The position numbers were made by a program, and so were the translations under genes. Below the pieces are notes generated by a model, which worked only from the letters and a program-made list of their open reading frames with translations, ran no database searches and was not told the origin of the DNA. A stretch of DNA of 53,532 bases, filler included, from Jimgerdemannia flammicorona (Eukaryota), in the NCBI GenBank assembly GCA_003990765.1. It is 2 parts of 2 records of this genome, joined end to end, with 100 filler letters (N's around TTAATTAATTAA, not from the genome) between each part and the next. Parts side by side here need not be neighbours in the genome. Positions count along the whole stretch, not along the records: positions 26,819 to 53,532 come from RBNJ01000701.1; 1 more part is not named here. One strand, written 5' to 3'. Positions 2,352 to 53,532 of this stretch are shown here, in pieces. Within the stretch, counting starts at the first letter, position 1. Each line of letters starts with the position of its first letter.

Positions 2352-2519
2352 GATAATAGTAATAATGAGAATAAGAGGGAATTCTAGTAGTAATTCTTTA
2401 GATCTCAAAATTTATAGATCTCATAGTTATATATATAGTAGTTTTTTTTAGAGTAGCTAATAGTAGATATAGATTATCTTTTCACTACTATATTTAAATT
2501 CTACAGTATGATCAAATTC

Positions 2520-3644: not shown

Positions 3645-3694
<50 letters not shown>

Positions 3695-4105: not shown

Positions 4106-4154
<49 letters not shown>

Positions 4155-4780
4155 AAAACTCTCTTCAAAATACAGAACAATAGATAGGATCTAGTTCTCC
4201 CAAGTGAGATGAGTAGAAGACTTATATGTAAGATAAGAGGAGACCTCTAATATCTTATTACTTAAGCTTATAGGCCTCAATCATATTACTACATCAGCTC
4301 TCAGTTCTAGTTGAGTATAGCCAAGATATCTGATCTAGGTAGTCTTAGGTCTCCCAGCCACCCCCAATAATCAGAGTCTAATCTCACAAATTATCAAAAG
4401 TAGCCAAGAGTGATATCTACTATCTAACTACTCTATATTAATCAAAAGACCTCACCAAAGTAGCAGTTGCTCTAGCCCTGATGACTACTTCTAGTCTAGT
4501 ACCCTATTGGTCTACTGTTATTACCCTTCCACCTATCTGTGATAGCCATCTCTTCTTCCATCCTAACTTTATCCAAAAAGCAGTTGCCTATACTAGAACT
4601 GTACTTATCAGAAAGCTTACTAAAGCTCAGAAGGCCCTACTATAAGTACTGAAGATCTATAAGTAATCTATACTAGCACTTAATGCCTAAGGTTGACTGA
4701 CTCTATATATAGCCTATAATATACCAGATGATACCTTATTAATAATGGTAAAAGAAAGAAGATACTATACCAAAATAAGT
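2520..4780 (-). mobile_element. Non-autonomous poly(A) retroposon, copy A (old; interrupted by copy B at ~2884-4152)
   Basis: Poly-T at 2520; 2540-2880 and 4153-4780 are colinear with the best-preserved copy at 7106-8290. Confidence 0.8.
2884..4152 (+). mobile_element. Non-autonomous poly(A) retroposon, copy B (full length)
   Basis: Starts ctttctctactaccttactggtcacaagg; ends aataaaattccacaggacatgagtctgtt + poly(A); flanked by approximate TSD aaataaaaac. Confidence 0.85.
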
Positions 4781-7105: not shown

Positions 7106-8290
7106 TTTTTTTTTTTTTGTTTAACGGACTCTATGTCCCGCAGAATTTTATTGGAAGAGAACCTAGACTATTTAGGCCAAACCCCTCCCCCACCACCCAT
7201 CAAGCACTGCCCCCCCATTAATCTAGGCTAGCTATTGTCCAGCAGCTCGACCATGCCAGGCGCAGCAGGGCCTATAGTGGCCCGCACCTCGTTCTGCGCT
7301 CCATGCTCTCCCTACCACCAGGGGAAACCCAGCCATATGCTAACGACCGAAAGTGCATGCCCAAGAACCCAACGTATGTACAAGGCTATGCCCGAGCTAA
7401 ATAGAATAGCCCCTGCCACCCTAAAGAGAATGACAGGCAAAGAAAAAACCCTCATCAAAGCACAACTCGGTGGGTAGGGCCTGGTTCTCCCAGTCGAGGT
7501 GAGTAAAGGACTTACACGTGAGGTGGGAGGAAACCTCCAATACCCCACTACTCAAGCCTGCAGGCCTCAATCACATTGCCGTGTCAGCTCCCGGTTCCAG
7601 TTAAGTACAGCCAAGACGCCTGAAATGGGTAGCCTCGGGCCCCCTGACCCCCCCTGACGACTGGGGCCTCACCCCACTACCCGCCAAAAGAAGCCGAGAG
7701 TGTCACCTACCACCTAACCATGCCGTACTAATCAAAAGGCCCCACCGAAGCAGCACCCGCCCCAGCCCCAACAACCACCCCCAGCCTGGCACCCTACTGG
7801 TCCACCGTTATCACCCTTCCTCTTATCTGTGATGGTCATCTCCCCTCCCAACCTGACAATACCCGAAAAGCAGTCACCTACGCCAGAACCGCACTCGCCG
7901 GGAAGCTCGCCAAAGCCAGAGGGCCCCACCACAGGCACCGAAGACCTGCAGGTAACCTACACTGGGCACTTGATGCCCAAGGTCGGCCAACTCCCTACAT
8001 AGCCCGAGATACACCGAGACAACTCCTTGTTGGCGATGGCAAAAGGAAGAAGGCACTGCACCAAAATGGGTACACCCCAGATGCAGCTGAAGGCACCAGA
8101 ATCTGTGAAAAAGTGGAGAAAGCACTGATCTGACACCAATAAAGGGACAACTCATCACCATTGCCCTCCTCCCACCATGCCCCTGCAGGCACAGCAAACC
8201 AACCCAAGGTAGAGGGGGTAATATTAGGGGAAAGGGGACTTGGAAGGTCGCCTACCAAACCTTGTGACTGGTAAGGTAGCGGAGAAAGGA
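7106..8290 (-). mobile_element. Non-autonomous poly(A) retroposon, copy C (youngest, CpG-rich)
   Basis: Poly-T at ~7106-7118; AATAAA on the minus strand; 5' end cctttctccgctaccttaccagtcacaagg shared with copies B and D. Confidence 0.88.
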
Positions 8291-17845: not shown

Positions 17846-18955
17846 GGAGCCCCCTCTTGAATGACAACCCAGACCATTGGCTCCAAGGCCTCTCTGACCT
17901 CTTTGAAGGACTACCTATCTGAATAGATATCCCCAGGTATAAGGATCAAGAACCCTACTTGGATGGTCCCAACTACATTAAATGGAGAATACCTATACTG
18001 GTACTCATACCAATACAAGAACTATTTACAGACCTCATTGACTTCTCTATTCTGGACAGTAAGCCATCAGCAACTACCTTCTCTGCCATTGAAGGAGAAG
18101 ACAACAATACTGAAGAAGACTCCCCACCTTTCTCTCCCCTGGTTCTCAATTTCTAAATCAATGAGGATATTGATTTCTAAGAGAGGAAGAATATAATAGA
18201 ATGAGGCATGAGGAGTGATCATGTGACCTAGTAAGCAATGACATCATATGATCAAGCATGATATATAAACAATGAATATAACAAATAATATAAAATAATG
18301 TGAAAAATAATATCCAGCTTATCTCTGACAATTGATATTACAGCAACTATTACTATAGTAGCTAATCATTGCCTAGTAATTGAGATCCTGATCATAAAGC
18401 TGTTTTTATCACAAACTACCTAACAAAGGTCATGATCACAAACCTCATTATAGTTATCAAATTAGTTACTCATACTTAGTCAGAAATTGTGGACCAACTT
18501 GTATAAATACCCCCCAGTTTCCATCTGAAATAAAGTAGTTTTCGTTCAGTCCTTGATACAAGAATCAAGTTCTCCCTCTATACACACATTCTCCTGAGTC
18601 TTAGTAATGATACCTAAGTAACTCTAGTATTTCTGACTAAATTTCAGAAGTCTAGCTAACTTCTGCCAGAACTGCAACCAGTATATAAATCTCCAAAGAC
18701 TTAAGTAAACCCATTGAACCTGAATTTCAAAGCAAATTCAGTCTATGTACAGCAAAGGACAAGACTCTTAAAAGATAGGGCAAATCAGAGAAAGATCTTT
18801 GAAAGATAAGACACTACCACTATAATTGCTTTCAAGTGAGTACTTCTTCAAACTGAAGGCTTCTTGGTATATATTATATACTAAGTCCCTAAGTAATACC
18901 TTATTTCCCTCAGTATCCAAAGGATCAGAAAGGGGTAGAAGTAAGAGTTATCACA
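17846..18955 (+). mobile_element. Second Gypsy 3' end (extra-ORF tail, PPT, LTR 18192-18955)
   Basis: 17846-18191 is a diverged copy of ~16726-17071, followed by a third LTR copy. Confidence 0.85.
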
Positions 18956-18985
18956 TTATTCTTAAAAAGCAGTAGTACTATAACA

Positions 18986-20988
18986 GATACCTTTCTTAGT
19001 TATCACTCACATTATACACACTTTTATAACATACTTTCTAAGTATTTATTGGAGAAAGATACTAAGCTTATGGCAACCAATAAGCAAGCTAACATGTATA
19101 CTAAGTTGGGTGGACCTAGAGCCTTTGACTGGCAACATATCAGACAAGAGTATAGACTAGAGATGGGGTCCTTTGGTGGTCTGAGTGGGCAGGGCAGTTC
19201 AGGTAGTGGTAGTGGTACTAGAGGAGAGGTAGGAGGGCAGAAGGAGAGGAGCTTTGTGGATACTCTGAAGACTGGAGATTGGCCTGTGGGTACTTGTAGT
19301 AGGTAGGCAGATGGGCCCAAAGAGGAAGGGGAATCTGGCTGATGGTGTAACAGGGCTGGCAGTAGCACTGTTACTCAAGAAGTCAATCTTGGAGTTCACA
19401 GCAACCTTGTGCTTCAGGGGCTTAGCAGTAACAGTAAAGATGGTTCTGGGGATTATCTTGAAGCAAGTGGCTGGAGCTGTCTTGGTGAAGTTCCTGAAGG
19501 GATTGGAGGGAGTTGAATTGGGTTTTGAGGAGGTGGGTCTGCTGAAGAAAACATTGAAATCTGGAGTAACTGTTGATGAGATAGTGATCCTATGATATGG
19601 TATTTAAAATGAGACCCCAGAGTGATTTAGTTACTAGTGAAGAGAGTACCTATGGTGATGAAGGTTGAGACTAGGAGGAGGGTGGAGAAGGTGATGGTAG
19701 AGTATAGTAATATAGTCAATATTGGTTTCCAGATGTGGGAGGAGACCACTTTCAGGATGAGTAATATAGATGTCAGGATTAGACTAGCTGGGAGAGAGGC
19801 CACAGAGAAGGTAAGTGACTGGCCTTTAGTGATGATGTGGGGGACTTTTGTCTGTAAGGTATTGAGGGTAAAAGAGAGTGAAGTGGAGGAGGAAGACTTG
19901 TTGGGGGCTCTGGAGGAGATGAGTGGAGCAGTAGAGTGGAGGGTGAAGACCTGAAAGTTGTATATAGAGTTAATACATTTGGAGATTGTGGATGAGAAAT
20001 ATATTCACACTGATAAGAGGCAGTGGAAGAGAGCTCAGGGGTGCAAGAAGCAGAGAGAGTTGCTGGTGAGTATAGAAGTAGGGGTGAAGAAGAATATTGG
20101 GGGCACTGAGAAGTCTAGGGGTGTGGAGGTGAGTGTCTGGGCTAGTGAGGGAGGAGGGGATGCAGAGGAGGGCCTGGATGGGGCCAGAAAGATGCCACAC
20201 AAGGACCCATTTGTGGATGGTACATTCAAAGTCTGGGAACCAGTCTTGGCAACACACTCTCTTCAGTCAGGTAAGGTCCTGCTGTGAGGGGCCAGGCAGC
20301 AGAGGATGAGCTAATGTGGGGTACTCAGTGAGTACACTTTGGAGTTCCTGATATGGTGAAAGGAGGACAGGTAGTGGCAGTTGGCAAGGATGAGCTGGTG
20401 GATGTCCCAGAGGAGAGGTGGGATGAGACTACAAGTATAGGGGCTGATATCATAATGCTGGATACAGGAAGACCAGGGACACTGAGAGGGAAGAAGGTGG
20501 AAAACCTGCTGTAGATGAGCCAGATGATAGATAACTTTACAGCAGAAGAGTTGAGAGAAGTGGACCTGAGAGTGATGAGTGAGGAGTATTGGGCATGGAT
20601 CCTATGTAGAGATAGGGTGGTAGAGACACTGAAGGCAGAGGTACTTGCAATTTTTCTGGAGGAGGAGAGTTATGAGGTTGATGAGGAGAGGAGGGCTGAG
20701 CTGATAGTTATTGTCAGTGAGCAGGCTACCTACTGTTGGACAGAGCATCATGGTTTGCAACTCTAGCAGGAGGTATGTCTGGAGTATCATGAAGACTTCA
20801 AGGAAAAGGTGGATGGGGAGATGGCTGAACTTCTGATTAGACTGGAGGCAAAGATGGCTGAAGAGAAGAGATTGACTGCTGAACATAACTTGGACTTGGC
20901 AAAGGAGGGAATGAATGTAGATTTGTAGAGGATGAGCTTGATAATTAACATTATTTCTTATGAACAGTACAATAAACATTTTCTCTCT
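18986..20988 (+). mobile_element. L1-like LINE, 5'UTR + ORF1 only (ORF1 ~19070-20928)
   Basis: Colinear with 20989-23125; breaks just inside the ORF2 start (ttttctctct). Confidence 0.85.
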
Positions 20989-23900
20989 GACACCTTTCTC
21001 AGTTACCACTCACATTATACACACTTTCACAACATACTTTCAAGCATTTATTGGAGAAAGGTACTAAGGCAATGGCAACCAACAAGTAAGCCAACATGTG
21101 TACTAGGTCAGATAGACCTGGAGCCTTCAACTGGAAACATGTTAGATGTGGATATGGATTGGGGATGGGGTTGTTTGGTGGTCCAAGTGGGCAGAGCAGT
21201 TCAAGCAATAGTAGCAGCACTGGGAGAGGAGCAGGAGGACAGCAGGGGAGGAGCTTTATGGATACATTGAAGAATAGTAGATGGCCTATTGGATCTTGTG
21301 GTAGACAGATGGAGGGGAAGGGAAAGCAGAAGGAAGGAGAAGAGAGAGGTGCTGGACCTCAGCCAGTGGGAAGAAGGGCTAGTGGAGTGGCAGCTGGGAG
21401 TAGGGGGGGGATTGCTGATGGTGGCATGACTGAGAATCTGGAAAAAAATCCAGATATGACTGCTGATGAGAGGGCTGGACAGATGGGCCCAAAGAGGAAG
21501 GGGGACCTGGTGGATGGTGTGATAGGGCTTGCAGTGGCACCATTACTCAAGAAGTTGATCTTAGAGTTTATAGCAACCTTTTGCTTCCAGGGTCTGGTGG
21601 TAATGGCAAGGATGGTTCTGGGAATTATCTCAAAGCAGGTAGCAGGAGCTGCCTCTGTAAAGTTTCTGAAGAGATTGGAGGGAGTGGAGGTGGGTTTTGA
21701 GGAGGCAGGTCTGCTGGAGGAGGTATTGAAGACTGGTGTAGCTGTAGGAGAGGTGGTGGTATCTATGGTATGGTACTTGAGGTGAGACCCCAGAGTGGTT
21801 CAGCTACTAGTGAAGGGGGTACTAACAGTGATGACTGTGGAGATCAGGAGGAGGGTTGAGGAGGTGATAGCAGAGTATGGTGATGTGGTGGATATTGGAT
21901 TTCAGATGTGAGAGGGGACTACTTTCTGGACAGAAGATGTAGATGTCCAGATTTGGCTGGCTGGGAAAGAGGCCACTAGGAAGACAAGCAACTGGCCTTT
22001 AGTTATGCTGTGGGGGCTTTCATCTGTAAGGTATCAAGGGTGAAGGGGAGTGAAGAGAAGGAGGAGGATCTGTTAGAGGCTTTGAAAGAGAGAAGTGGAG
22101 CAGTCAAGCAGAGGGCTAAGGCCTGGAAGGTGTATGTGGAATTGATGTATTTGAAGATTGTGGATGGTAAATATATCTATACTAACAAGAGGCAGAGAGA
22201 GTTGTTGGCAAGCATGGAAGAAGAAGTGAAGAAGAATTGTAGGAGGTATTGAGAAGTCTGGGGGCACTGAAGCAAGTGCCTAGGCCAGTAAGGGGGGAGT
22301 ATATCAAGGAGGGTTAGGATGGAGCAGAGAAGCTACTGCACAATGACCTTTATGTAGATGGTACATTTGAAGTCTAGGAATAAAACTTTGATAGCACCCC
22401 CCCTCTTGTTAGTCAGGTCCTACTGTGAGGAGCCAGGCAGTAGAGAATGTGCTGATACATAGAGCCCAGTAGGTATATTTTGGAGTTTCAGATCTAGCAA
22501 AAGGAGAACAGATAGTGGCAGTTGGTGAGGATGAGCTGGTGGATGTGATGGAGGAGGAGTGGGATGAAACTACAAGTGCAGGAGCCAATACCATGATGCT
22601 GGATACTGGAAGGCCCATGATGCCAGGGAGGAAGGAGGTGGGGAACCTACTGTGGTTATACCAGATGATGAACAACTTTGCAGCTGAAGAGTTAGGAGAA
22701 GTAGACCTGTGAGTGATGAGTGAGGAGCATTGGGCATGGATCTTACAGAGTAATGGGGTAGTAGAGGTACTGAAGGTAGAGGTGCTTGCAATTTTTCTGG
22801 AGGAGGAAGGATATGAGATTGATAAGGAGAGGGAGACCGAGCTGGCAGTGGTTGTGGGTGAGTGGGCTGCCTTCTGTTGGATAGAGCATCATGGGCTGAG
22901 ACTCTGGAAAGAGACCTGTCTAGAGTACCACAAGGACTTCAAGAAAAAGGAGAATGAACTTCTGGTGGGTTTGGAGGCAAAGGATGCTGAAGAGGAGGAT
23001 TTGGCTGTTGAACATGACTTGGACTTGGTACAGGAGGAGAGGTATGTGGATTTGTAGAGGATGAGTAGAGTATTTCTTCTAAAAAACATTATTCCTTATA
23101 AACAGTACAACTAATATTTTCTCTCTAAATGTGAATAGACTACAGGGATCTGAGCAGTATAAGAACATTTTTACTTGGCTTAAGAGTTTGGAGGCTGACC
23201 TCTTTTTGCTGCAGGATGTCCATTGTGAGGATGATGAGGATCAGGAGACTTAGACTAGAGAATGGGGAGAAGCTGTAGCTTGGATTAACAAAGTGGCAAT
23301 TTTGGTGTAGAGTAATAAAGGGGACTTAGGTGGAATAAAAAGCTGGGGGACTGTTGGGTGTAGGGGGAATGACATAGGCCTGGGTGGGTGCCAGTAAAGT
23401 TTAGGTCTTGCTATTGCCTAGCAGTTAGGGGTGAGAGGATTACATGGATTAAAGGTTTTTTGAAAGAGAGCACTCTTCTGGAGGAGGGGGTCAATATTCT
23501 GGGAGGAGACTTTAATATGGTACAGGATATTCAGTTGGATAGAACTGATGGAGAGAGGAGTGCTGGTGGAAGGAGTGGTGGCCTAGACATATGGGAGGAG
23601 GTGGAGAACCTTAGCTCCCTGGGAGATATGGGCAGGATAGAGTGGGGAGACAGGAGGATCTACACACACTGGGTGAATGGACTGGGTATAAGAATTGACT
23701 GATCCTGACAGCCAAATGCTGGGGAATCAATGTTTAGAAGACTCTGGAGTTAGAGTGGTGCCCATGGTCTGATCATTGGGGTCTCTTGGAGCAGGAGCAG
23801 TTTGGGGGGAGTGGAGATGGACCTGGACATTGGTATCTTAACTTCTCTCTGCTGGCTGAGAAGGTTTTGTAGGACCCATGAGTGGAGGACATCCAAGTGA

Positions 23901-26718
23901 AGATTGCTGACTGGATATGTGAGGGCTTGCCAGTGGGTGTCCAATAGATAAGATTGAAAGAGACTACACAGGTTCACTGGGGAGAGGCTGGTAGAGAGGC
24001 AGAGAAGTAGATCAGGAAAAGAGTGAGGTGTGCTTCCAATCAGTTGATTAGATTGCAGATAGAATGAGCAGATTTGATATATTCTGGTAAGGTGGATGAT
24101 TGGAGGTTGGCATGAGCAAAATTGGAGATGATGGAGCTGCAACAGGTGTTGAGAGAGGAGGAGGAGATATATATGAAAGGAATGGCAGCTAGGCTGAGAT
24201 GGCAGAGACTTGAGGAGGGGGAGAGGCCTACTAGGTACTTGTCAAGGCTTCTCCAGGCTAGAAGGGTATGGCATAGATGGGATGGAGATCTGGATGCCAA
24301 TGGAGAAATGGTACATGACATACAACAGATTTTGGAGTTACTGAAGGAGCAGTGGAGGGGTCTGTAGAGTGAGAAGGGGGTACTAATGAAGAAGTAATTG
24401 AAGGTATGTTTGAGGATTGGGAACTGCCACAAGTGGAGGGCCTGGGGGATTTGATCCTGCCAGTCCAAGAGGAGGAGATCCAGAGAGTCCTGGTAGCAAC
24501 TAAGCTTGGAATAGTACTAGAAGAGGATGGGTTACCTTGGAACTTTCGGAAGAAGATGGTGAAGATCCCTGGAGTATTAGGAGAGATGGTAGCCCTCTGT
24601 GACTAAGTTCTTCTAAATGGTGAGTGGGTTGGAGGGCAGGACCTAGGGCTGGTGGCCCTGTTGTATAAAGAAAAGGGAAGGAGGGAGGATTGGAAGAACT
24701 GGAGACCAATTATACTTCTGGATATAGACAGGAAGATAGTGACTAAGGTGATTATTGCAAGGCTACAGAAGATTGCTCAACAAGTGCTGAGTGAGGAGCA
24801 GTGGGGCTTTGTTGGAGACAGGCTAATTAGAGATGGGACAGTCTGGATTTATAGCATCATTGAAGGAGTAAGAGCTTGTGGATTGAATGGGAGACTGGTC
24901 TTTTTAGACCAGGAGAAAGCCTATGACTGCATTTGGCAGATATGACTGAGCAAGGTGCTGGATAGAATTGGTGTTCCTCCATGATTTCAGATTTCTATGT
25001 TGAATCTGTTGGAGGGTAGTAGGGCAGCTCTGATGTATAATAGTCACTAGGGTCTGGCATTTCCCTTGGGAAGAGGAGTTCCTCAGAGAGATCCACTATC
25101 ACCTATTCTTTACACCCTTTCATTAGAATCTTTGATAGATAGGATTTGATGGAAGGTGGTAGAGCTCTCTATATATAGAGTAGTGTGGAAGGTGGGGGCC
25201 TTTGCCAATGACATGGTAGTTAGACTTGGCTCAGTGGTAGATGTTGAGATATTTAAAGAGATGGTGGAATGGTATGAGGTATACTCTGGGGCAAAAGTTA
25301 ACTAGTATAAGTATGAGACAATAGTGCTAGAGAATGAGCTAGTGGGTGGGGACATCATTAGAACAATTGTCTCTACAGGAGAGGTGGTGTAGTATCTGGG
25401 TATCTTCCTTTCTATATATGGATCTGTCTTGCCATGGGTGTGGTGGGAGAGGAGGGTGGCCATTTGGGGAGAGGCTCTTAGAGGTTGGGGAGGTCACCAT
25501 ATCTCTCTAGTAGACTGGGTGTTGATTCTAAATGTCTACTGGTTCCCCAAGCTATAGTATGTTGCTTATCACTTAGACTTTCTAGCTTGGGTGGTGAAGA
25601 GACTGATGAAACTGGCTAGAGATTGGATTTGGATAGAGAGGTGGTCCCAGATTAGTTGGGATACTCTTGCAATACTGGTGGTTAGAGGAGGGCTAGGTCT
25701 AGTTGATTTTTCTAAGAGGCTGTACTGCCTACAAGCTTGGTGGTTGAGAAGGACTGTTGAACTACAGGGTCGGGGTTGGGTGCTGCTGATACAGAAGGTG
25801 TGGAAGATGAGATTCTCCCCTCAAGAGTCATTGGGAGATTTGCTATCTCTGGTGGACCTGAATGGAAGCTAATGACTATGGTATAAGGGCTTCTGGTAGG
25901 GGGTGGTAGATGGAGCACACCACATTGGCCTGTACTGGTGGAGCAATGAGGGGGAGATGCTGTGGGGACCAGCTATATAGAGATGGGACAGACTGCTTCT
26001 GGGAGGTATTCCACTTGCTGAGTTTGACATTGGTGATGGAGTGAAGTGTCAGAGGGGGCTTGGTCAGGATATTTGGCCAAGTAGTTGGCAGGCAGTGAGG
26101 ATTGGCAATGAGTGGGACTGGGCAGGAGTCTGGTCATAGAGTACTGAAGTGCAGAGATGGCTTCCTCCCAAGTTCTGAGTGGTGTGGTGGTGGATGTTGC
26201 AGAGGAATGTCATATTGAATTTCCATGCTGGTTATCTGATATATGGTGGACAATTAGATTGTGAGAAGTGTTACAATGTTAAGCAAGTTGGGGGATTTAT
26301 GCAGATGCCAGAACATTGGCTGAGAGAGTGTGAGATTCTGAAGGACTTTTGGATAGCAGTGGGGGACCAGTTGGGTGTGAAGAAGAGGCCAGATGGAGAG
26401 CAAGGGTGCTGGGAGGATTTGAAATCTAGGCTAGTAGGTGGTGTGGGCAATGGATGGCTCACTATAGAGTGGGTTTTAGCTGTATGGGTAGGGCTGGCTG
26501 GACATTGGCTTTTTGTATTTGAGGGGCAACAGATGAGTTTATAAGAGAAGTTGTTAAGATAGAAGGGGTTGATGGGAGATTTGCTGACAGGGTAGTGGGT
26601 TGGTTGGGGTCTCCAGAGTGGGTATCATCACTATCTGGTAGAAGAGATCTGTAAACAGAGTGGTGGGTGGGTGGTAATAGTGAATAAGAAAGTGGTCTTT
26701 CATCAAGAGGGAGTTGGG
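20989..26718 (+). mobile_element. Near full-length L1-like LINE (ORF1 21072-23057; ORF2 ~23061-26718), mutated
   Basis: APE endonuclease (SLNVN, ILGGDFN, RID, SDH); RT (NWRPIILLDID, DQEKAYD, FAND for FADD); C-terminal CEKC...EHWLREC zinc finger; runs into the gap. Confidence 0.93.
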
Positions 26719-26818
26719 NNNNNNNNNNNNNNNNNNNNNNNNNNNNNNNNNNNNNNNNNNNNTTAATTAATTAANNNNNNNNNNNNNNNNNNNNNNNNNN
26801 NNNNNNNNNNNNNNNNNN
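26719..26818. other. Assembly gap with artificial TTAATTAATTAA six-frame stop spacer
   Basis: N runs flank ttaattaattaa. Confidence 0.97.
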
Positions 26819-26833
26819 AAAAAAAAAAAAAGC

Positions 26834-29006
26834 TCAATCTTTTAAGAAATCGCCAAACAACTTGTTCTTGAGCTCGGCGTAACTAATGTGTGCAACATCA
26901 GGGAGTCTTTGAACCAAACGACTGTGGTTGGGAGCACCGGGACTGCCCTGGATATAAACGATGCGGAAGTCTTTCACGGGTTGGCCATTTTGAGTGACTA
27001 CAAAGTGTTTATCGTCGTCGATATGAGCCTGGTGTGTACCACCAAACACTTCATCCAGGTATCTTTCAATTTGGTTTCTCTTCTCTTTGCTTTTGTGCGT
27101 TTTGTGCTGTGGGAGTTCAAAAGCCTTCTCGATGCTTGCTGACTTTTTGTTGTGGCCACCGAAAGTGCTGATTGATACCTGAATGAACATGCGTCCGAGC
27201 ATGAAGTCGAACCGTGGATACCCTGGGTAACCGCGTACAAAAGACTCAGCATAGTGGGGTCCAGGAGTGAACTGTTTCGGCTCGAGGTAGACAAAGTGCT
27301 TGAACTGGATATGCACGGGCGCCATTTTCTTTCCGGCGATGTTATTCGCGTCGAATGTTACTTGACCGAATTGCAATAGTCGATGGAATAGCACATCCTC
27401 AAAGTCGTCACCAGACAGAGTACCTTTGAGAGAGGCCACTTTCATATCTATTGGTAGTGGACAGTTCCGGTATAAGTCCAAGAGGGCGTCCAATGCAGCT
27501 GGGCACAGTGGTTTGTGCAGCACTTTGTCATTTTCTCTCAACCGATACACCAGTCCAGCATCCAAAAACTGCCATGAAAAATCTATGGTGGGTTCACCAA
27601 GCGTTGACCGCAAGAACATGGATGAAAGAGCCTTTCGGTATAAGGTTTGCTCCATCTCGGTGAGGTTGTTGAAATCGTAATAATTCGATGCGTCCTTCAA
27701 AAATCTACGGCGCTGGTCATTACGGAAGTCCTGAAGTTTCTGATCGAAGGACGTTGAATTTCCATCGCCGAAGTGATCTTTGACTAGCCGTACGAGCTCG
27801 CGCGGTACGCAGTTGGTAATCTCCCTCACTTTAACTGCATTGTCCGGGTTTCTCAGTTCCGGATGAAGCCACAGCAGCTTGTCGAATACAGTTTGTGATA
27901 ATGGGCCAACGAAGATCACACAATCCTCCATGTCACTCCGAAGGTATTTCTTCTCAAACTTTGCGTGTGCAGTACCAGTTAGGACCACACGCGTTCCGTT
28001 CTCCTGATTCCACCAGTTAAGATTCGTCAGGGAGTCCAAAATATTTTTCCGTGGGGTTATCGGGGATTTCCTATTGAACAGAACGCCGTGCTCGTCGACG
28101 ACAAGTAAAGTTTTGCAGGCATGGCGCTTCAGTAGTGTGCCCATAATCTGTCCAGCACAGGCATCGACGACAGGAAATGTATTATCAACATAGGTCACCA
28201 GGATTTCAAGATCGGTGGAAGTGAGAATGTCTTTGTTGAGCGCCAAAAACCGCTTGCAAATCTCCTCACATGTTTTCGAAGATAAATATTGATCCAGAGC
28301 GGCCGCATCGGATATGTACAGCAGGGGCCACGCTTCGGCATACGCCATGGCTGCAAGAAACATGGCGAGATATGATTTGCCCACACCCATTGGACCCGAC
28401 AGGAGACGTATGATCGAGTGCATGGTATCCGCCGCTAGTTCTCCCCAAACCTCCTCCATTTGCTCTGTAACGACGAATGTGAAGCCCTGGTAGCCCGATC
28501 CATAATGCTTGGGCTTCTGACCAAGTGAAGGGAGAGTAATTACGTCGCCGGGTTTCACTATCTGCAGCATTTCTTTGAAGGATGAGCGCGGTGCTGGTGC
28601 GAAACTGTTGTCGCCGTTGAGCATACTGATTATTTCAGGCGGAAGGAGCACCCCCTTGCCATCAGCGGCGATATACGTGATCCAGCCATCTGTCCGGCGT
28701 CTCTTGGCGACAGGACTTTCCTCTGAAAAGGCGACAGGACTTTCCTCCGAAAAGGCGACAGGACTTTCCTCTGAAAATGTATGGAAAATAATTTTAGTCG
28801 GGCAATGACGGAAAGCAGTGTAATGAACTGTCAGATAAAGAGCATAATACCGGTGTGAGATCTCTTGGTAACACGTTTGCCCTCTATAAAAGGACAACCA
28901 AAACGAAAAGCAAGAAATGTTAATATTCTCCCTTCACATTTGTTTGATGACTTGCTCTGTGTCGAAGTTCGAAGGTTGTAAACGCACTTGATTTACTTGA
29001 TTTCAT
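26834..29006 (-). CDS. Crinkler-type P-loop NTPase + PD-(D/E)xK-like REase protein, paralog 1 (~662 aa)
   Basis: Predicted exons 29006-28988, 28883-28851, 28770-26834 (GT-AG, in frame: MKSSKSKGKRVTKRSHTEESP); Walker A GPMGVGKS; Walker B LLVVDE; VPREL; DDFE...YPRFDF...FIQVS. Confidence 0.85.
28706..28777 (-). repeat. 3 x 24-bp tandem repeat spanning the splice acceptor
   Basis: ggcgacaggactttcctcYgaaaa x3, encoding (FSEESPVA)n. Confidence 0.97.
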
Positions 29007-29367: not shown

Positions 29368-31901
29368 ATGCCCCCAAAATCGCACCCCGCTTCCGGTGCG
29401 CGCCCGAAGCCAAATGCGAGAAGCAGGGCAGAGAAACCCCAGGAGAATGTTGTCACCGGTCATGCAATGAAAACAAGGAGCCAAACGAAGAGGGAAGAAA
29501 CGTCCCTGACGTCCAGCTTTAAGGGTAAAATGCGTAAGCCGAGCCAAAAATCTTTAGGAGTAGAAGTCACATCACTGAAAGGTATATGTTTTGCCCGAAC
29601 GCATTCGCGAGATTCTCGTGTTTCAAGCGGTGGTAAAAACATGCACTGAGTATTCATGCTTACGCAGGACGTCGCGACCATCAACGTAAGGCAAAAAAGC
29701 CAAAGACATCCGGTAAGTGAACATACAATGGAATAAATAGTTTTTTGATATCCAACCTCTCAGTCGTGCAAACACTCTCCATCACAGACAACGGTCCCAC
29801 CATCCCCGAAAACCTCCAAACGAAAAACGAAGGACTTGTCAGCGAACATGGTAAGTGGTGCACGTTACGGTGGTGGACGCGTTAAAAAAGTACCATAGGA
29901 ATGTTCCGAGGTTTCCGTACATGCTGCCTGCGTTCACTGCCATAATTCAAATTTCTGACTTGTACCTCACTGACTGAATTCTAAATCGCTTCCATTTATT
30001 CATCCATACCAATTTTAGAGGAACGACCTGCGAAGAGACGCCGGGTAGATGGCTGGCAGCCATACACCGCCGCTGACGGCCAGACCCTGTACCTTCCACC
30101 TGAAATGATCAACATGCTCAACGACGACAGCAGTTTCGCACCAGAACCGCGCTCCTCCTTCAAAAAAATACTGCAGGTGAAACCCGGCGACGTAATTACT
30201 CTCCCTTCACTTGGTCAAGAGCCCAAGCATTATGACTCGGGCTACCAGGGCAAGAGATTCGTCGTCACAGAACAAATGGTGGAGGTTTGGCAGTTGCTAG
30301 CGGCGGACAGCAAGCACTCGATCAAACGAATACTGTCGGGTCCAAGGGGCATTGGCAAGTCGTATCTTGCCCTGTTCCTCGCGGTAATGGCGTACGCCAA
30401 TGCGTGGCCTCTGCTGTACATATCCGATGCGGCCGCCCTGGACCAACCAACAGGTTCGAAGTCATCAGAGGAGATTTGCAAGCGATTTTTGGCGCTCAAC
30501 AAAGACATTCTCACTGCTGTCGAGCTGCAGAGGCTGGTGAAATACACTGATACAAATCCTGTCGTTGACGCCTGTGCCGGAGAGATTATGAGCGGACTAC
30601 TGAAGCAACGCGATCACAAAACTCTCCTGGTCGTCGACGAGCACGGCGCGCTGTTTAATGTTGAACCTCCGGCACCTGATCGACTCCCGATTTTGGGTCC
30701 CCTGAAGAACCTTACCGCGTGGGATGAGGCGATGAATGGAACGCGAGTGGTCCTGACCGGTACGGCGCATGCAAATTTTGAGTGGAAGCACCTTCGAAGA
30801 GATATGGATGGATGGCTGATCTTTGTCGGCCCGCTGACGCAAGCCATCTTCGACAAACTTCTGCAGCTTCACGAGGAACTAAGAGACCCAAATAATGCGT
30901 CAAGAGTGAAGGAGATTACCAACTGTGTGCCGCGTGAGCTGGTGCTCCTTATCGATCACTTGTTTGGCTCAGGCAATCTCATTTCCGAGTCCTTTGAAGA
31001 GGAGCTGCAGAACTTCCGCCGAAAGCGCCACGAGGAATTTTTGAAAAACGCGAAGAATTATTACCAAACCCTCGACGGGCACAACAAAGATTTCTATCGA
31101 AGAGCCCTTTCGAACATGTTTCTGAGATCATCACTGGGTAAACAGCCCGCAGACTTTGATGGGAGGTTTATGGACACTGGAATGGTGTATCGGTTCATAG
31201 GCGACCACAACGGTGTGCTGAAAAAGCCGCTATGCCCACCTGCATTGGACGCGCTCTTGGATGTGTACAAGACGTGCGAGCTGCCGAGGAGTGTGAAAGT
31301 GGCCTCTCTCGAAGGTATTCTGCCTGGCGACGACTTTGAGGATATACTTTTTCTGGGGTTATTGAAGCATTCCAATATAATTTTCAAAGCGACAAACCTT
31401 GCAGGAAGGCCGACGAACCCCGTGCATATCGAGTTCGAGCACCTCATTTGTCTTGAGCAGAACCAGTTCACCCCTAAAAGACAACACGCCAAGTCTCTGG
31501 TACGTGGCTACTGGAAGTATCCGCGGTTCGACTTTATTCTCGGACGTATGTTTATCCAGGTGTCAGTCAGCACTTTCAGCGATCACAACAGCCACGCAGC
31601 GAACATTAAGAAGGCTTTTCACCGTCCGATGCCGAATGCACCGTATTTCGATGGGGAAAGAAATCAAATCGAGATTTACCTGGACGAAGTGTTTGGTGGT
31701 CACCACAAAGCCGATATCAATACGACCACTGGTGGCTTCACTGTCACTCGAAATGGCAAAATGGTGCCAGACTTTCGCATCGTTTTCATCCAAGGCAGTG
31801 GCGGCATTCCTAACGATACTAGTTTAGTTAAAGAACTTCGTGATGTGGCACATGTTGGTTATGATGAGATCAAAGCCAAGCTGTTCGGTGATATGATGTG
31901 A
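29368..31901 (+). CDS. Crinkler-type P-loop NTPase + REase protein, paralog 2 (~742 aa)
   Basis: Predicted exons 29368-29581, 29668-29712, 29764-29850, 30019-31901 (all phase-1 GT-AG, in frame); GPRGIGKS, LLVVDE, VPREL, DDFE...YPRFDF...FIQVS; basic disordered N-terminus. Confidence 0.87.
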
Positions 31902-46778: not shown

Positions 46779-47543
46779 ATATCTAAGATATATTTAGAAT
46801 AAATAAACAGAAATATAGTTAGAAATCAGAAATTAAAATGAAATTGAAAATAAATAAGAAATAAATTAGAAAAATAAAGAACTTACTAGTATAAATATAT
46901 CTTACTCTTTATTACTATAAACTAACTAATCCTCCTCCTTCTTATATTCTGAATTATCTTCTATATTCTCTTTTATATATTTCTTATCATATTCTGAACT
47001 ACTTTCCTCTATATTCTTCTCCTCTATATTCTTCTCTGAGCTGACCTCCTCTGCACCAATCTCTCTATATTTCTTTATATAAATATCTATATATTCCTTT
47101 ATACTAATATTTATATATTTCTCTATACTAATCTTCCTCACACTAATCTCTCCACTAATACCAACCTCTTCTATCTCTCTATCTCTCTTACTATTATCCT
47201 TCTCTTTCTCAATATTAATTAAATATACTAGTCTACTATCTATTAGTTATATATATATAAAGTAGTTTGTCATTCTTTACTAGTATTTATCCATAATGAT
47301 AATTCTATCTGAATAACCCGACTTATTCTATACTTTAGTATTTATCTTAAAACCAGTATAGTATGATGAGTATTTTACAGTTTTTATATAGTTTTCTATT
47401 ATTCTTATAATTTCTTTTCTTAGTTGATCATCTTGTACTTTTTTTATATATTTATTAGCTATAGTGAGAGTATGCCAAATGTTCAAGTTATATGGTCTTT
47501 TTTCTATAAGATTTGGAGTATCTAGAAATTTGACTTAGTAATA

Positions 47544-47545
<2 letters not shown>
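46411..47545 (-). mobile_element. Second hAT-like relic (terminus, subterminal repeats, BED-finger remnant)
   Basis: tagtgctctg terminus at 46411; ~40-bp catctttaatctga repeats at 46440-46690; minus-strand TxNIWH-like remnant near 47480. Confidence 0.55.
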
Positions 47546-47546
<1 letters not shown>

Positions 47547-47582
<36 letters not shown>

Positions 47583-47606
47583 TTTTTTTGTTTAAGAAAT
47601 TTTTTT

Positions 47607-47656
<50 letters not shown>

Positions 47657-48096
47657 GACTCAGAGTCTTGCAGATTTTATTAGAAGAGAACCTAGATTAT
47701 ATAGACCAAAAATCTCTTCCACCACCTATCAAGCACTATCCCCCCATTAACCTAGACTAGCTTTTGTCTAGCAGCTTGACTATACTAGGTATAATAAGGC
47801 CTATAGTGGCCTGTACCTCATTCTACATACCATGCTCTCTCTACTACTAGGGAGAACTCAGCCATATGCTAATGACTGAAAGTGTATGTTCAAAACTCCA
47901 ACATATGTACAAGGCTATACTCAAGATAAATAGAATAGCCCCTACTACCTCAAAGAGAATAACAGGTAAAGAAAAAATCCTCATCAAAGTATATCATAGT
48001 GGATAGGGCCTAGTTCTCTCAGATGAGATAAGTAAAGAACTTACACATAAGGTAGGAGGAGATTCTCAATACCTCACTACTCAAGCCTACAGACCT
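47547..48096 (-). mobile_element. Non-autonomous poly(A) retroposon, copy E (3' half)
   Basis: Long poly-T, then colinear with 7120-7566; abuts the LTR end at 48097. Confidence 0.88.
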
Positions 48097-48776
48097 TGTA
48101 TAAGAGGGTTACTTTTTAGAGTAACTGTTACATAGTTCTGAAAGAGTTTTCTGGGAGTTCTGGGTTTTCTGGAAGACCATTTTCTTATGGTCAGAATCAA
48201 TTTCATATAGAGTATATCCTCTATGCTTATTGATTTCAAGTTTGGGTTGACATCTCAACCAAAGTCCTTTTTTGGACTAGTTTTGGATATTCAGGATTTT
48301 CCATATTTCAAGAAGTTTAAGAAACTAAGATCAGCTTAGTTGAATTGGCATATTACTACAGACAATACTCAATTATGAAATTTCATAATGGGGTTAGGAG
48401 TGGGACCTAACAGGAAGAGAATTTACTTAAAAGTAATTTGTGGGTTATTAAATAGGTTTATTTGCTATTTATGATATTACTATACTAGGAGTAGTTGTGT
48501 AAAGGGATATTGTGGGGAAGTGCTCAGGAGTTATGTTTGGATTGTTTAGGTCTAAGATTCTGAGGTCTGAGAGAGGGGATATTTATACTAGTGAGGGGCT
48601 ATCTGGACTATATTAAATATGGATATAGCACTAAGTGTCTTGCTGAGTCAGAATGCAGTCATGTAGTACAAGAGTGATCTAATATATCAAGGGATCATCT
48701 GACTGCTGAGTCAGTTTACAGTCACATCATATAAGGCTAATCTAACTATACTATGACTGCTAAGCTATCTATAGAT

Positions 48777-49388
48777 TTAGATACTATCTGGGTAGTCTTT
48801 GATGACATCACCATTGATGATATCGTCTCTGATGAAGTAGTTGTCTAGGAAGAGTGATTTGCAGATTACTTCTCCTTGTTCACTGAGATAGTAATATATT
48901 GGGACTTTATTGCCATCTTATAGGATAACATCATCTGTCTCATATGCTGGGTATAGAGTTGGTGGGTAAAGGAGTAGTATATCATCTTCACTTTCATTGG
49001 ATTCACTGTCTGCATATCTTCTATAGATTACAACACTATGAGTTGCAGGGTTATAGTAATCTAGTGGCTATGGTTCATGTCATTTGTACTCAAGTGGTAG
49101 AGTGGTTGGTTCAATCTTGAGGGTTGTCTGAAGATATAGGTTATATTCTCCAGTCTCTTCATTATAGTTGAAGTAATCAGAGATGAACACAGGTTGGTAT
49201 TTATACCAGTGATCATCATCCCAATAGGTCTCATAGGTAGTTATGAACTGTTGTAGGTTCATTGGAAGAGTTGGCAGTATGATCAGAGTTGGCAGAGATT
49301 CTTGGCTTGAGGTCATGTCAGTGTCAGAGAGATTATTGTCTTCTGCTTCATCTTCATCAAATCAAATTATATTGTAGACATCCTTCAT
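48777..49388 (-). pseudogene. LTR-internal ORF B (203 codons, acidic and Tyr-rich, unknown function)
   Basis: MKDVYNII...YETYWDDDHWYKY...IKDYPDSI*; includes ORF-track 49080-49316; four transition-type stops, no frameshift. Confidence 0.65.
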
Positions 49389-49873
49389 TATATATCTGAC
49401 TTGAGGCATTTGTAAAATATGGTCATCAGGGTGCAAGAAGGTTCTGTCTGTGGTCTGAAAATATTTGAGATACTTGTAATTGAGTTCTTATATCATGTAT
49501 TGATTTGGCCATAGGACAGAGTAGTAACCATTTTGCTAATAGTAACTTGGAGATGGGAAATAAAGGTGCTATACTTGTAGAAGAGTTCTCAATGTTTGCA
49601 AGCAATGAGCTTCTAGTGTTGAGATATCTGGATAATGTCTGTATCATGGTAGTGTTCAACTATATCTTCTAGGAGATGGCCAATCTGGTAGTAGCTTGAG
49701 ATTTGTCTGATCTGGTTGGCTTCACTAAGTATGTTCAGGGCATTCCATCAGGCTTCCACAAAGTAGAGAGGTACTAGACTATGGATATTCATGAGGGGCA
49801 GAGGGAGTGTGGCTCAGTTAACAATAGTATTCCAAATATCAGCATGGATGTAGTTGTAGATCTCAGTGGTCAT
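49388..49873 (-). pseudogene. LTR-internal ORF A (161 codons, unknown function)
   Basis: MTTEIYNYIHADIWNTIV...KCLKSDI*; no frameshift; internal stops are TGA/TAG revertible to CGA/TGG/CAG. Confidence 0.65.
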
Positions 49874-51738
49874 ATTTATATATATTCAGAAGTTGTGGTT
49901 GTTGTTTGTTTTGGTTCTCTATTTCAACATATCTCAGTGCTCAGTATATATATATATGGTCCTGATTGGTAAGATTCTGTTTGTGTAAATCTTGTATTTC
50001 ATGACTTTGTATTGACTCAGCTTTGTGTGCTGTGACTTTAGTTTGACTCAGCTTCATAATTATGTAGGTGATTTCCAGATTTGTTCAGAGGTCATATGTG
50101 ATTTCGGTGGCTTGTTCAGAGGGTGACATGTGATTTCAGTGGCTTGTTCAGAGGGTGATGTGTGATTTCAGTGACTTAGAGGTTGTGTACTTACAACTCT
50201 CCCCTTTTTAGCTTTCGACATCCTCATCAGGGGCCTTCTAATTTTGTTCTAGTATTGTTACACTATTTGGAAGGTCAAAAGTCCAGTGAAGTCCATTTTT
50301 CTCAGAAAATGGCATACTTGTAGTACAGTTGCCTAACACATTGGATTTACATATTAAAGAGTCATGTGTTTAATGCCATGCACCAGAAGTGATTCTGACA
50401 TCATTCATTGCTGGAGAATTTTCTCTAAGAAATCTTCTTAAATGTCTATGCCTCATTTCCCACCAGTGGTACAGGGAGAATAGGCTTGCTTTCAGTTTTG
50501 CTATTTTTCCAGAGGGTTGGTATTCTTTTATCTTGACTTGCTGAGTTCTTGATTTTATTCATGATAATTATAACATTCAGGAGAGTAATATATAGTATGT
50601 ACTGATAGGTATCAGATATTCATTTTTAGTTGTTCAAGGAATCATATTCCTGAACTAAGTCAATGGTATTCTGGATATTGGTCTTGGGTTCCTATGTTAC
50701 ATCATAGATTGAGTAACCTTTCCATTTGACAAGATACTCAGGGCAATTCTTGTGGCCATGTTTGTTGAGGATTTGTTCAACTTCATACTCTTCTTGGTCA
50801 TTAATTATGACAGGTGTAGGTGGTTCTATGGTTTGGTTTGGGAATAGTTCATCACCATTTTCATTATATTACTTGAGACATTGAACATTAAAGACTAGAT
50901 AGACCTTAATGGTGTTTAGTAGCACCAATTTGTAGGAGGTTGGAGAGACTTGTGCAATGACTTCAAATGGTCCAATAAACTTGCTGTTCAGCTTTGTAGA
51001 TAGTCTGTGCTTGAGGTTGTCAACTCGATATCCTTGGATGTCCAGTAGAACTTTTTCTCCAATATCAAAGGTTTCTTCTTAGTGGTGTTGGTTAATATAC
51101 TGTAACTATTGTTCTTGAGCTCATGATAAATTCTCAATTGTGATCTGGCTTAGATTGCACATTTGGAGCAAGAATTCTTCAATAGCTTTGACTGTGGAGA
51201 ATTCATCAGTTGTTTGGATAAGTGTCAGAAGGGTGTTCAGGTTTCATTCTGTATTGGCAAAAAATGGAGTCATTCTAAGGGAGGCTTGCTTGCTGTTGTT
51301 ATAGACAAACTTGACTGCAGTGAGGTGTTCATATCAATCATCTTATCTGTAGAAAACATAGTTTCTTAGTCTTTATTCTAGAGTTCAGTTCATTCTTTCA
51401 GTTTGGCCATCAGTTTCAGAGTGAAAGGCTGTAGATAGTACAAGTTTTATTCCAAGGTATGCATAGAGAACTTTTCAAAAATAGCTGGTGAATTTTGGGT
51501 CTCAGTCACTAACAATAATTTTAGGAAGACTATGATAGCAGAAGATGTTGTCAAACAAGAGTGTGACTATATCTGGTGCTGTTGTAGTAGTAGTAGTTGG
51601 CATGAAGTGGGCTTGTTTGCTGAGATAATCTACAAAGACAACAATTGCATCTTTTCTATTCTTGGTTTGGGGTAGTTATATAATAAAGTCCATGGAGATT
51701 TGTTTTCAATTAGTGGATGGTACTGGGATAGAGTGGAG

Positions 51739-52282
51739 ACAGGAAGGGGGATTGGTACAGATGCCGGAACATTAGCTAGGGGAGTGTGAGGTGTTGGGAG
51801 ACTTTTGGCAGACTATTGGGGACCACTTGGGGGTAAGGCGTAGGGGTGATGATGTGCAGGAGAGGTGGGAGGACCTGAGGGATCGATTGATAGGAGGGGT
51901 AGGGGAAGAGTGGATTATGCTTGGCTGGGCATTGGCTATTTGGGTTGGGCTGGCTGGCCACTGGCTATTTGTATTTGAGGAGGAGGAGTGACAGAGCTTG
52001 GGGAGCCATTTAGCAAGGTGGCAGTTCCTTATGGAGGATATCTTGATAGGCTGGTGGCTTGGTTGGGGGCTGCAGGGGGATCGGAGGCGCCACTTGGTGG
52101 TGAAAATCTGTGATCAGAGTGGTGGGAGAATTGGAGTTGTTGGTGAGAGGGTGGTCTTTATACATGAAGAGGTGGGGTGGGGCCCCCCGATGGGGATCGG
52201 TTAGTGGGTGGTGATATTGTATACTTATTCATAGACTAGTAATAAAGATGGAGTCCAAGGGACTATAAAAAAAAAAAAAAAA
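51739..52282 (+). mobile_element. 5'-truncated LINE inserted in the chromovirus integrase
   Basis: Homologous to 26290-26718; AATAAA and poly(A); 14-bp TSD gggatagagtggag (51725-51738 and 52283-52296). Confidence 0.95.
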
Positions 52283-52977
52283 GGGATAGAGTGGAGTACC
52301 AGGTTTTGCTAGTATTGAGGACTTATTGTATTGGCAGATATCACAGGAAGTAATGTAGGTCTTTAGCTGATCTGCCATACAGGGCCAATAGAAGTTTTGG
52401 GAGATAACTTCATAGCATTTGTCAAATCCTAAATATCTGGTAATAGGGACATCATGATACTCAAATAGGATAGTCCTTTAGAGGTCTCAGTTGTTTGGGA
52501 TATACAGTCTGTCCTTATAGTAAATAGCATTGTCCTTGAGTTGATAATGATAATACTGGGTGTACTTGTCAGCATCATTACTATTCAGAATTTCTCAGAG
52601 TACTTGAGCTTCTTTATCATCAGCACATGCTGTGATAATTTGTTCCATGATAGAGTTTGTAACCAGAGTGAGAGTTTGGATAACTTCTTTGATTGGTGAT
52701 CTGGAGATTGCATCAGCAACAATATTTTCCTTGCCAGGGCAGTATTGGATTTTATAGTCAAAGTTAGTGAGGACTTTCATCCATCTGGCTTACTTTCGAG
52801 AAAGAGTAGCCTAGGTCTTGATGTTGACTAATGACTTGTGGTCAGTCAATATAGTGAAGTGTGCTCCTTTTAGGTATAGTCACCATTTGATCAGAGTATC
52901 TACAATGGCTAGCATTTCTTTCTTATGGATTGTGTAGTTGATTTCAACATTATTGAATTTACAAGAGTGATAGGTGA

Positions 52978-53532
52978 CCGCAACCCTTCCTCCGGTACAA
53001 TTCACGTTACACAAGACTTCAAGCAACAGTTTTTCGACACTACTAGAAGAAAAGGTACTATCAACATGTCTTCGAACAAGAGTTCCGACAGGTGTACTGG
53101 GTCGGGGGGAGCTGGGGCTTTCGGCTGGCAGGAGGTGGGGAGGGGTTTTGGCCTGGGGATGGGGGCCTTTGGAGGATCGAAGGGCGGGGTGGGCTCTGGA
53201 GGAGGACCGGTGTCAGGTGGTAACAGGGGAAGGGCTGGCCCCTCCAGCTTTGCTGACAAGGTGAAGGGGAGTGGATGGCCGGTTGGAGACAGAGCTGGAG
53301 ACAGGGCTGGTGCTGCTGTGGGGAAGGGCAAGGCGAGCCTGGGGAGGGGGGGTGGTCCTCAGGTTGGCGGTGTGAGCGTAGGGTCTGGAGGAGCTGTGGC
53401 TGGGGGTGGGACTGCTGATGGGGGTGTGACGGCGAATCTGGAAAAAAAAAGAGATGTGACGGCTGATGGCCAGGGGGGTCAGGGGTTCCCGATGCGGAAG
53501 GGGGACCTGGCGGATGGTGTGACGGGGCTGGC
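52978..53532 (+). mobile_element. 5' end of a young LINE (ORF1 start ~53066) inserted in the chromovirus RNase H
   Basis: ADGGVTANLEK...KGDLADGVTGL matches ORF1 at ~21400-21530; CpGs retained. Confidence 0.88.

Follow-up and report, generated by a model that had tools for sequence, protein, structure and literature searches.

One accessory gene, not two, behind the polypurine tract of a decayed chromovirus in Jimgerdemannia flammicorona

Long terminal repeat (LTR) retrotransposons with additional open reading frames (ORFs) in sense orientation, termed aORF-3S or ORF3, are described from plants, insects and bdelloid rotifers, and the rotifer ORF3s are presented as separate transcriptional units, in the portions of two sources that deal with them (PMC7264820; PMC5408684). 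A different arrangement, in which a gene resides within the U3 region of a retroviral LTR, is found in the sag gene of mouse mammary tumour virus (MMTV), according to the relevant section of PMC12548423. The present analysis concerns a stretch of 53,532 nucleotides from the fungus Jimgerdemannia flammicorona (assembly GCA_003990765.1; positions 26819–53532 belong to RBNJ01000701.1), referred to throughout as the window, whose minus strand from about 53000 down to 48097 holds a Ty3/gypsy chromovirus that is truncated to its 3' end and CpG-decayed. Behind the polypurine tract (PPT) of this element lies a coding region that an earlier note on this DNA had read as two tandem ORFs, perhaps translationally coupled, and that comparison with other copies of the family reunites into one conserved accessory ORF. 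Additional genes are seldom met with in LTR retrotransposons other than those of plants, insects and rotifers, and what they do is mostly unknown. The locus offers a concrete case in which to ask how accessory functions are gained and expressed by elements of this kind.

The accessory ORF varies the familiar theme of the "additional ORF" in that it comes after a canonical PPT. It runs in the sense orientation downstream of pol and is conserved in several copies, the features by which an aORF-3S is recognized, and it shares with the described aORF-3S/ORF3 genes the gag-pol orientation, a location past pol and presence in most family copies, those genes likewise being often orphan or unclear in role as far as they are treated in the passages cited (PMC7264820; PMC5408684). 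It departs from them in that known ORFs of this class lie upstream of the PPT and the 3' LTR, whereas the start of this one is 320 bp past a canonical PPT/TG junction, in that its product has neither a transmembrane segment nor an enzymatic domain, and in that the element is a chromovirus. The order of RNase H, H2C2, rve, SH3_Tf2-1 and chromodomain, followed by a PPT, is that of fungal Ty3/gypsy chromoviruses as set out in part of PMC3248453. This family differs from them in carrying a third conserved gene. To our knowledge, described fungal chromoviruses encode gag and pol only and have LTRs of a few hundred bp, and no fungal chromovirus with a comparable extra gene was found in a literature search that was not exhaustive. 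Among retroviruses, foamy viruses possess an internal promoter with the Tas/Bel ORFs, nef of human immunodeficiency virus (HIV) overlaps the PPT and U3, and sag encodes a type II membrane glycoprotein. The likeness to foamy viruses is that of a 3' accessory gene with its own promoter-like region upstream, and here TGACTCA pairs occur in both promoter-like regions, although promoter activity and transactivation are putative; foamy viruses and HIV are vertebrate retroviruses rather than chromoviruses, and there is no homology to either. If the 2.1 kb behind the PPT form one LTR, the locus would resemble MMTV in having a complete ORF in a long U3 that is duplicated with each LTR, but LTR membership is putative here, there is no similarity to sag in sequence or fold, and the accessory protein is soluble and acidic.

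Two intact proteins and a large set of short contigs define the reading frame. The contigs stem from four runs (X1–X4), three of them soil metagenomes of one study and one a run labelled 'organism A', and are short, unitig-like Logan contigs with at least 80% identity over 47500–53532 (3836, 515, 496 and 55 contigs per run); no RNA run was among those listed as containing the stretch. In word-indexed protein searches, one of the three candidates for the supposed ORF A passed, the 128-residue P0004 (E 2e-54), and one of 33 for the supposed ORF B, the 247-residue P0003 (E 1e-65). P0004 shares the N-terminal sequence of the window ORF and aligns with it without gaps at 75% identity (94/125); P0003 has 58.6% identity over 239 residues (57–59% across comparisons), with in-frame gaps only, and ends at the same ...YPDSI stop. 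Mapped back by tblastn, residues 1–125 of P0004 fall on 49873-49499 in frame 1 and residues 13–247 of P0003 on 49496-48780 in frame 0. P0003 starts 48 residues upstream of the putative initiator methionine of ORF B, its first 12 residues matching the end of ORF A and the remainder frame 0. Where the frame changes, six X1 contigs carry an extra base behind 49498 relative to the window, and an X4 contig is open across the A/B junction (...DDMIQELNHK...), with Q at the TAA of the window. Since P0004, P0003 and the X1 and X4 contigs read across the junction, ORF A and ORF B are, on this comparison of copies, the halves of one accessory ORF of about 364 codons that is broken in the window copy (ATG at 49873, stop codon 48782-48780). 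The earlier note had seen no frameshift in this region; the window copy is in fact one base short.

The TAATG that had been taken for a stop–start coupling is indeed present (49390-49386, minus strand) but lies inside the continuous frame, which reads ...QMPQVRYIMKDVY... in the window and ...QMPQVSYTMEDIY... in P0003; the frame-1 stop is out of frame, and the ATG is an internal methionine codon that P0003 simply reads through. A cassette of two coupled ORFs was consequently rejected, other copies staying in a single frame across the A/B junction as well as TAATG, as was termination-reinitiation at TAATG, the frame change being a one-base defect of the window copy. A frameshift in a decayed copy had thus mimicked a translationally coupled ORF pair, a tempting misreading that is now corrected.

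The coding nature of this ORF is solid on the statistics of its frame, because only nine in-frame stops occur in 364 codons as compared with 22.0 ± 4.4 in 2000 composition-matched shuffles (the fraction with nine or fewer being 0.001), and because the 247-codon frame of P0003 has been kept open at 57% identity. The other five frames contain 14–42 stops. That the stops in the window are of transition type, as had been pointed out, is trivial for any stop codon; more telling is that P0004 has a sense codon opposite all four stops of the N-terminal part (R, R, Q, R). The stop at 49490-49488 is common to the window and the P0004 contig, while P0003 and the X4 contig have Q there. This shared stop speaks to some degree against a uniformly single gene, as part of the family may descend from a split gene; it could reflect either an ancestral split in a subfamily or a parallel mutation.

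The accessory ORF is conserved and family-wide, and the thousands of short contigs from soil metagenomes make the chromovirus family itself abundant and diverged in soil. Other copies, too, contain the two junctions that bound the ORF segment: an X4 contig joins its own diverged PPT region to TGTAAG (loose end 50145), and a 223-bp X3 contig bridges 48739-48961. A nested insertion private to the window copy is therefore excluded. One part of the earlier note's reading is upheld, in that a real accessory coding region, conserved in the family, comes after the PPT of this chromovirus with a promoter-like region in front of it.

The identity of the element rests on its pol remnant, in which Pfam models follow one another from 52990 to 50641 in the order RT_RNaseH, Integrase_H2C2, rve, SH3_Tf2-1 (E 2.5e-12) and Chromo (E 1.1e-9). 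An RNase H is thus succeeded by an integrase with a C-terminal chromodomain, as expected of a chromovirus, and SH3_Tf2-1 together with this chromodomain marks the element as such; every domain scores above its cut-off except rve (E 4.4e-5, 24.1 bits against a cut-off of 32.6). The earliest stops past the chromodomain, at 50628-50620, end the pol frame. From there the PPT is about 410 bp away; in an X3 copy without the 286 bp at 50251-50536 (joint 50250>50537) the distance is about 125 bp, which makes the 3' untranslated spacer length-variable in the family. The GC-rich interruption of the integrase is not part of the family sequence: one X4 contig connects 51731 to 52304 with 16 other letters between, and a portion of the insertion (51746-51980) is similar to 26290-26524. 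Upstream the element is cut off or interrupted at ~52985-53000, the window itself ending at 53532, and a 710-bp X2 contig and loose ends part from the window sequence at ~52974-52985. The repeat that cuts it there is GC-rich and encodes a Gly-rich ORF on the plus strand, for which there is no Pfam family; this ORF (52913-53532 region) resembles ORFs at 21090-21785 and 18893-19306. CpG has been lost from the whole element, with an observed/expected ratio of 0.03 in 48097-50195, compared with 0.97 in a gene-like region at 27-35 kb. Moreover, the window copy is a transition-decayed relic, because where X1 contigs differ from it the window mostly has A/T and the family contigs G/C (330 + 180 positions, as against 168 + 112 in the reverse sense).

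Downstream of pol, the structural landmarks of the earlier note were borne out almost without change, namely the PPT–TG junction, the tandem repeats of about 30 bp, two pairs of TGACTCA sites, a TA run, TATAAA and a CA end. The PPT is the sole pure-purine run of at least 13 nt in the element; six runs of at least 10 nt occur in 53532-47500, two of which are poly-A of the flank, and there is none between 50195 and 48097. Copy number of the 32-bp repeats differs between family members (contig joints 50054>50144, 50060>50123 and 49988>50069). TGACTCA, which we take to be an AP-1/Gcn4-type site in this element, is found at 50044-50050 and 50013-50019, and again at 48707-48713 and 48644-48650. The eight occurrences in the window as a whole are not above chance (shuffle mean 9.58, with 73 of 100 shuffles reaching eight), but the four that fall within these 2.1 kb are clustered, about 0.38 being expected (Poisson p ~6e-4, an estimate). 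A TA run (49957-49945) follows the first pair, and TATAAA (48587-48582) and AATAAA (48462-48457) follow the second; the two promoter-like regions are without sequence similarity to one another (score 24, shuffles 22.4 ± 2.5). From these motifs, the segment between 48880 and 48097 would contain the U3, R and U5 parts of an LTR end, and it combines the greatest contig depth with a lower ex-CpG signal.

The end of the element, ...CTTATACA at 48097, is fixed within ~3 bp because the flanking repeat can be aligned with its copies at 7420-7640 and 3600-3850 as far as ...CCTTG at this boundary. Since the repeat copy at 7106-8288 carries on past the point equivalent to 48097, the chromovirus is inserted, as judged by this alignment, into the repeat at 47603-48096. 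The interrupted family, which also spans 2517-4158 and 7106-8288, has a 106-nt homopolymer (T, plus strand) at 47547-47652 in the copy that received the chromovirus and a long A run in its copy at 3600-3850, and may be a poly(A)-tailed retroposon.

Table 1. Positions of the chromovirus remnant, its accessory ORF and adjoining features in the window
Feature	Position	Strand	Details
RNase H domain remnant, Ty3/gypsy pol	52760..52990	-	Pfam RT_RNaseH, E 2.2e-19
Integrase zinc-binding (H2C2) domain	52316..52489	-	Pfam Integrase_H2C2, E 1.4e-14
GC-rich insertion within integrase	51732..52303	-	572 bp, GC 0.55; absent from one X4 contig
Integrase core rve, SH3_Tf2-1 and C-terminal chromodomain	50641..51705	-	Pfam
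Polypurine tract AAAAAGGGGAGAG	50197..50209	-	followed by T, then TGTAAG from 50195
32-bp tandem repeats	50081..50177	-	3.1 copies, 89% matches; Tandem Repeats Finder (TRF)
Promoter-like stretch 5' of the ORF, two TGAGTCA/TGACTCA sites and (TA)n run	49945..50050	-	putative function
N-terminal part of accessory ORF (former ORF A)	49499..49873	-	frame 1; 125 codons, 4 in-frame stops, start MTTEIYN
Frameshift, window copy one base short of other family copies	49496..49499	-	frame change in tblastn
C-terminal part of accessory ORF (includes former ORF B)	48780..49496	-	frame 0; 239 codons, 5 in-frame stops
Terminal segment with LTR-type signals (TGACTCA x2, TATAAA, AATAAA, end ...TACA)	48097..48880	-	motifs
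Copy of another repeat family, interrupted	47603..48096	.	~80% identity to 7106-7567 and 3699-4158

How the gene relates to the LTR is a separate question. The best explanation of the layout, to which we would give an even chance, is that the PPT serves as plus-strand primer and that a single gene resides in the U3 of a 2.1-kb LTR. The segment 50195-48097 has LTR-type ends, with TG after the PPT and one T on one side and CA at the insertion boundary on the other, and the accessory ORF sits between the PPT and TATAAA, so that it would belong to U3 only if the PPT is functional. In this proposal TG at 50195 and CA at 48097 would delimit one LTR, in which a promoter-like stretch with three 32-bp repeats, two TGAGTCA sites and a TA run would precede the ATG, the ORF would encode a helical N-terminal portion of ~120 residues (in a low-confidence model) followed by ~240 acidic-aromatic residues up to the stop at 48780, and the element's own TGACTCA-TGACTCA-TATAAA promoter, AATAAA and terminal ...TACA would follow. 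A monocistronic mRNA of ~1.5 kb might then start from the gene's own promoter at ~49920 and be polyadenylated at ~48440 by way of the LTR poly(A) signal, and its product would most likely be directed at the expression of the element itself or at a host factor. The single conserved ORF, its occurrence throughout the family, its place after the PPT and the end of the element are shown by the comparisons above, whereas promoter use, transcript, LTR membership and function are all inferred. Were the PPT functional, an orphan acidic protein would be encoded, together with the signals for its expression, in every LTR, solo LTRs included, a retrotransposon counterpart of MMTV sag held at slightly less than even probability; the LTR-borne protein would possibly act in trans on the family, either by transactivation or by antagonizing a host factor. 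A complete gene would in that event survive in each solo LTR that recombination leaves behind, and the annotation of LTR remnants in such genomes would change.

The extent of the LTR, 50195-48097 in this proposal, is suggested by the geometry of PPT, TG and TACA, and the balanced verdict on it weighs this canonical geometry against a strong prior for internal extra ORFs. Contig depth also drops across ~50195 on the side of pol (X1 681>378>271; X2 48>15>6; X3 27>7>0), and the bins of 49520-50125 exceed pol bins by ~1.5-2.5 times. Several observations nevertheless weigh against a long LTR. Neither a second LTR nor a solo LTR or full-length copy was seen in the window or the contigs; BLAST detected no second copy of the segment in the window, and a transition-tolerant Smith-Waterman comparison returned scores of 65, 58 and 57 where shuffle maxima were 60, 72 and 55. 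Terminal inverted repeats are weak (TGTA/TACA only), a scan for them singled out no LTR start, and 2.1 kb is long for the LTR of a fungal chromovirus. In three runs, 48106-48913 exceeds 48914-50125 in depth by a factor of 2.5-6 (X1 1214-1542 vs 172-681, X2 128-219 vs 9-48, X3 113-138 vs 12-72), the local X1 values falling from 1505 at 48692 to 710 at 48857 and 126 at 48928; a run of purines at 12 of 13 positions (48881-48869) coincides with this break, inside the last ~30 codons of the ORF; and the observed/expected ratio of TG on the sense strand changes from 1.88 (48881-50195) to 1.24 (48097-48880). Such a break in depth and composition would be expected of a ~770-bp LTR with an internal ORF.

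The chief competitor, a serious possibility even if it falls short of probable, is a short LTR of ~770 bp (~48865-48097), with 50195-~48870 internal and the gene a sense additional ORF, whose last ~30 codons would, together with the purine tract at 48881-48869, overlap the start of U3 much as the 3' end of nef overlaps the PPT and U3 start in HIV; the purine run at 50209-50197 would then be a second or ancestral PPT. It is favoured by the sharpness of the depth step between 48857 and 48928 in X1, X2 and X3, by depth bins of 48106-48913 that never overlap those of the ORF region, by the purine run at the step, and by an ex-CpG TG ratio upstream of it (1.88, and 2.19 in non-coding 49874-50195) that is like pol (1.6-1.7) and unlike the terminal segment. 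It is generally known, too, that LTR depth well above internal depth is usual once solo LTRs exist, and the interval between pol and the 3' LTR is the commonest position of sense additional ORFs in the part of PMC7264820 that bears on it. On the other hand, the candidate PPT at 48881-48869 is broken by a C, TAATC precedes the first TG, the tract need not be purine-rich in the P0003 lineage, which has E-N-G-D there, and 48857-48928 offers no start of the TGT...ACA type. Under a short LTR, the G-rich 13-nt tract with TGTA at 50209-50192 would be a product of chance, for which composition allows <1% in 1.7 kb (an estimate). Depth, furthermore, is a poor measure of copy number, because it adds up the short contigs of a great number of diverged copies and tracks their conservation. 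Values are low in the variable acidic half of the ORF and recover to 770-896 (X1) at 49806-50039, and the X3 depth of 168 at 49806 equals that of the terminal segment (170 at 48692). Depth falls into three tiers along the element, with a break at ~48860-48930 and a weaker one at ~50195, both confounded by divergence, and a lower ancestral CpG content alone would make the terminal segment more alignable.

Less account need be taken of a mosaic origin, an improbable reading by which 50195-~48900 is a foreign insertion (another element or a transduced host gene) in this copy or a small subfamily. The discontinuity of composition and depth at ~48900 and the lack of any relative of the ORF among retroelement proteins would fit it, but both junctions are found in diverged copies, namely the X4 PPT-TGTAAG contig and the X3 bridge; the arrangement must be old, given that P0003, 57% identical, terminates with this stop too; capture of a known cellular gene is unsupported, given that 1.84 billion representative proteins include no host-gene homologue; and the segment is not framed by a target-site duplication or a TG...CA pair. 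That there is no gene at all, the open stretches being accidents of a G-poor strand, is very improbable indeed. The sense strand does have only 13-14% G, lowering the frequency of TAG and TGA, and the window copy has its nine stops and a frameshift, yet two independent intact ORFs from other sources (75% and 57-59% identity) are free of frame-breaking gaps and the composition-matched shuffles contain more than twice as many stops. A further reading, in which a short LTR spans 50195-~49900 and the gag of a second element in tandem comes next, was rejected as well: neither a primer-binding site nor pol is present after the ORF, and 48097 marks an integration boundary.

The accessory protein itself has few recognizable features. 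The C-terminal ~240 residues have an isoelectric point of 4.05 and contain 19-20% D+E, 15% aromatic residues and 7-10% Pro. AlphaFold2 modelled five helices over the N-terminal 120 residues of P0004 at low confidence (predicted local distance difference test, pLDDT, 51), while no fold was predicted for P0003 (pLDDT 31). No membrane segment was detected in four sequences, in which the maximal 19-residue Kyte-Doolittle hydropathy is 0.57-1.27, and as no hydrophobic segment reaches membrane-span values and Pfam yields no match, an env-like ORF3 was rejected. By its composition, the acidic-aromatic tail would suit a transcriptional activator or a host-factor decoy, although the activator role taken by itself is unlikely; it counts against any such proposal that no family, fold or homologue stands behind the function, and nothing points in particular to the anti-silencing role raised in the earlier note.

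Relatives of the gene were sought widely. P0003 returned only itself from the 1.84 billion representative proteins, which hold no homologue of the accessory ORF beyond the P0003 and P0004 fragments; neither Pfam nor, by sequence, the PDB gave a match, a short-fragment protein search passed none of 49 candidates, and Atlas offered no usable feature match, its structure rows all having TM ≤0.30. Among metagenome contigs, 430 and 92 stretches had the pattern of the ORF or terminal segment, none of which was confirmed as a relative; none was confirmed among genome contigs either (164 stretches, and no match to a second pattern), nor in viral contigs (346 and 38 stretches, with no match to further patterns), where a two-stretch scan scored one as a relative without a locus, taken to be a pattern-only match. 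A scan with pol led to three loci at 32-35% identity, in which the accessory ORF has no relative (best tblastn E 0.042).

Several other features of the window deserve mention. A second Ty3/gypsy remnant (9142-13148, minus strand; RVT_1 and integrase-like ORFs) is unrelated to the chromovirus, and tblastn found no counterpart of the accessory ORF in it. At 40-43 kb there is a block resembling the outcome of repeat-induced point mutation (RIP), with GC 0.22-0.26, depleted CpA and TpG and enriched TpA; decay of the chromovirus (48097-53000) differs from this in its loss of CpG, excess of TpG and lack of CpA loss. In the 19-27 kb block (18893-27000), which is related to the GC-rich repeat that cuts the chromovirus, GC skew ranges from +0.38 to +0.48 along 8 kb, the CpG observed/expected ratio is 0.03, and internal direct repeats (19308-20988 vs 21480-23126) at 75% identity are present. 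Two divergent, paralogous and intronless ORFs of 699 and 638 aa (26834-28933, minus strand, and 29985-31901, plus strand) sit in an inverted repeat of 72% DNA identity with normal CpG content; a P-loop is present in each, and STAND NTPase models (nSTAND3) match both weakly, below the cut-off. Long intronless ORFs, the RIP-like block and a carboxylesterase ORF of the window, for which the nearest Atlas clusters are eukaryotic, with Ascomycota commonest, point weakly to a fungal host.

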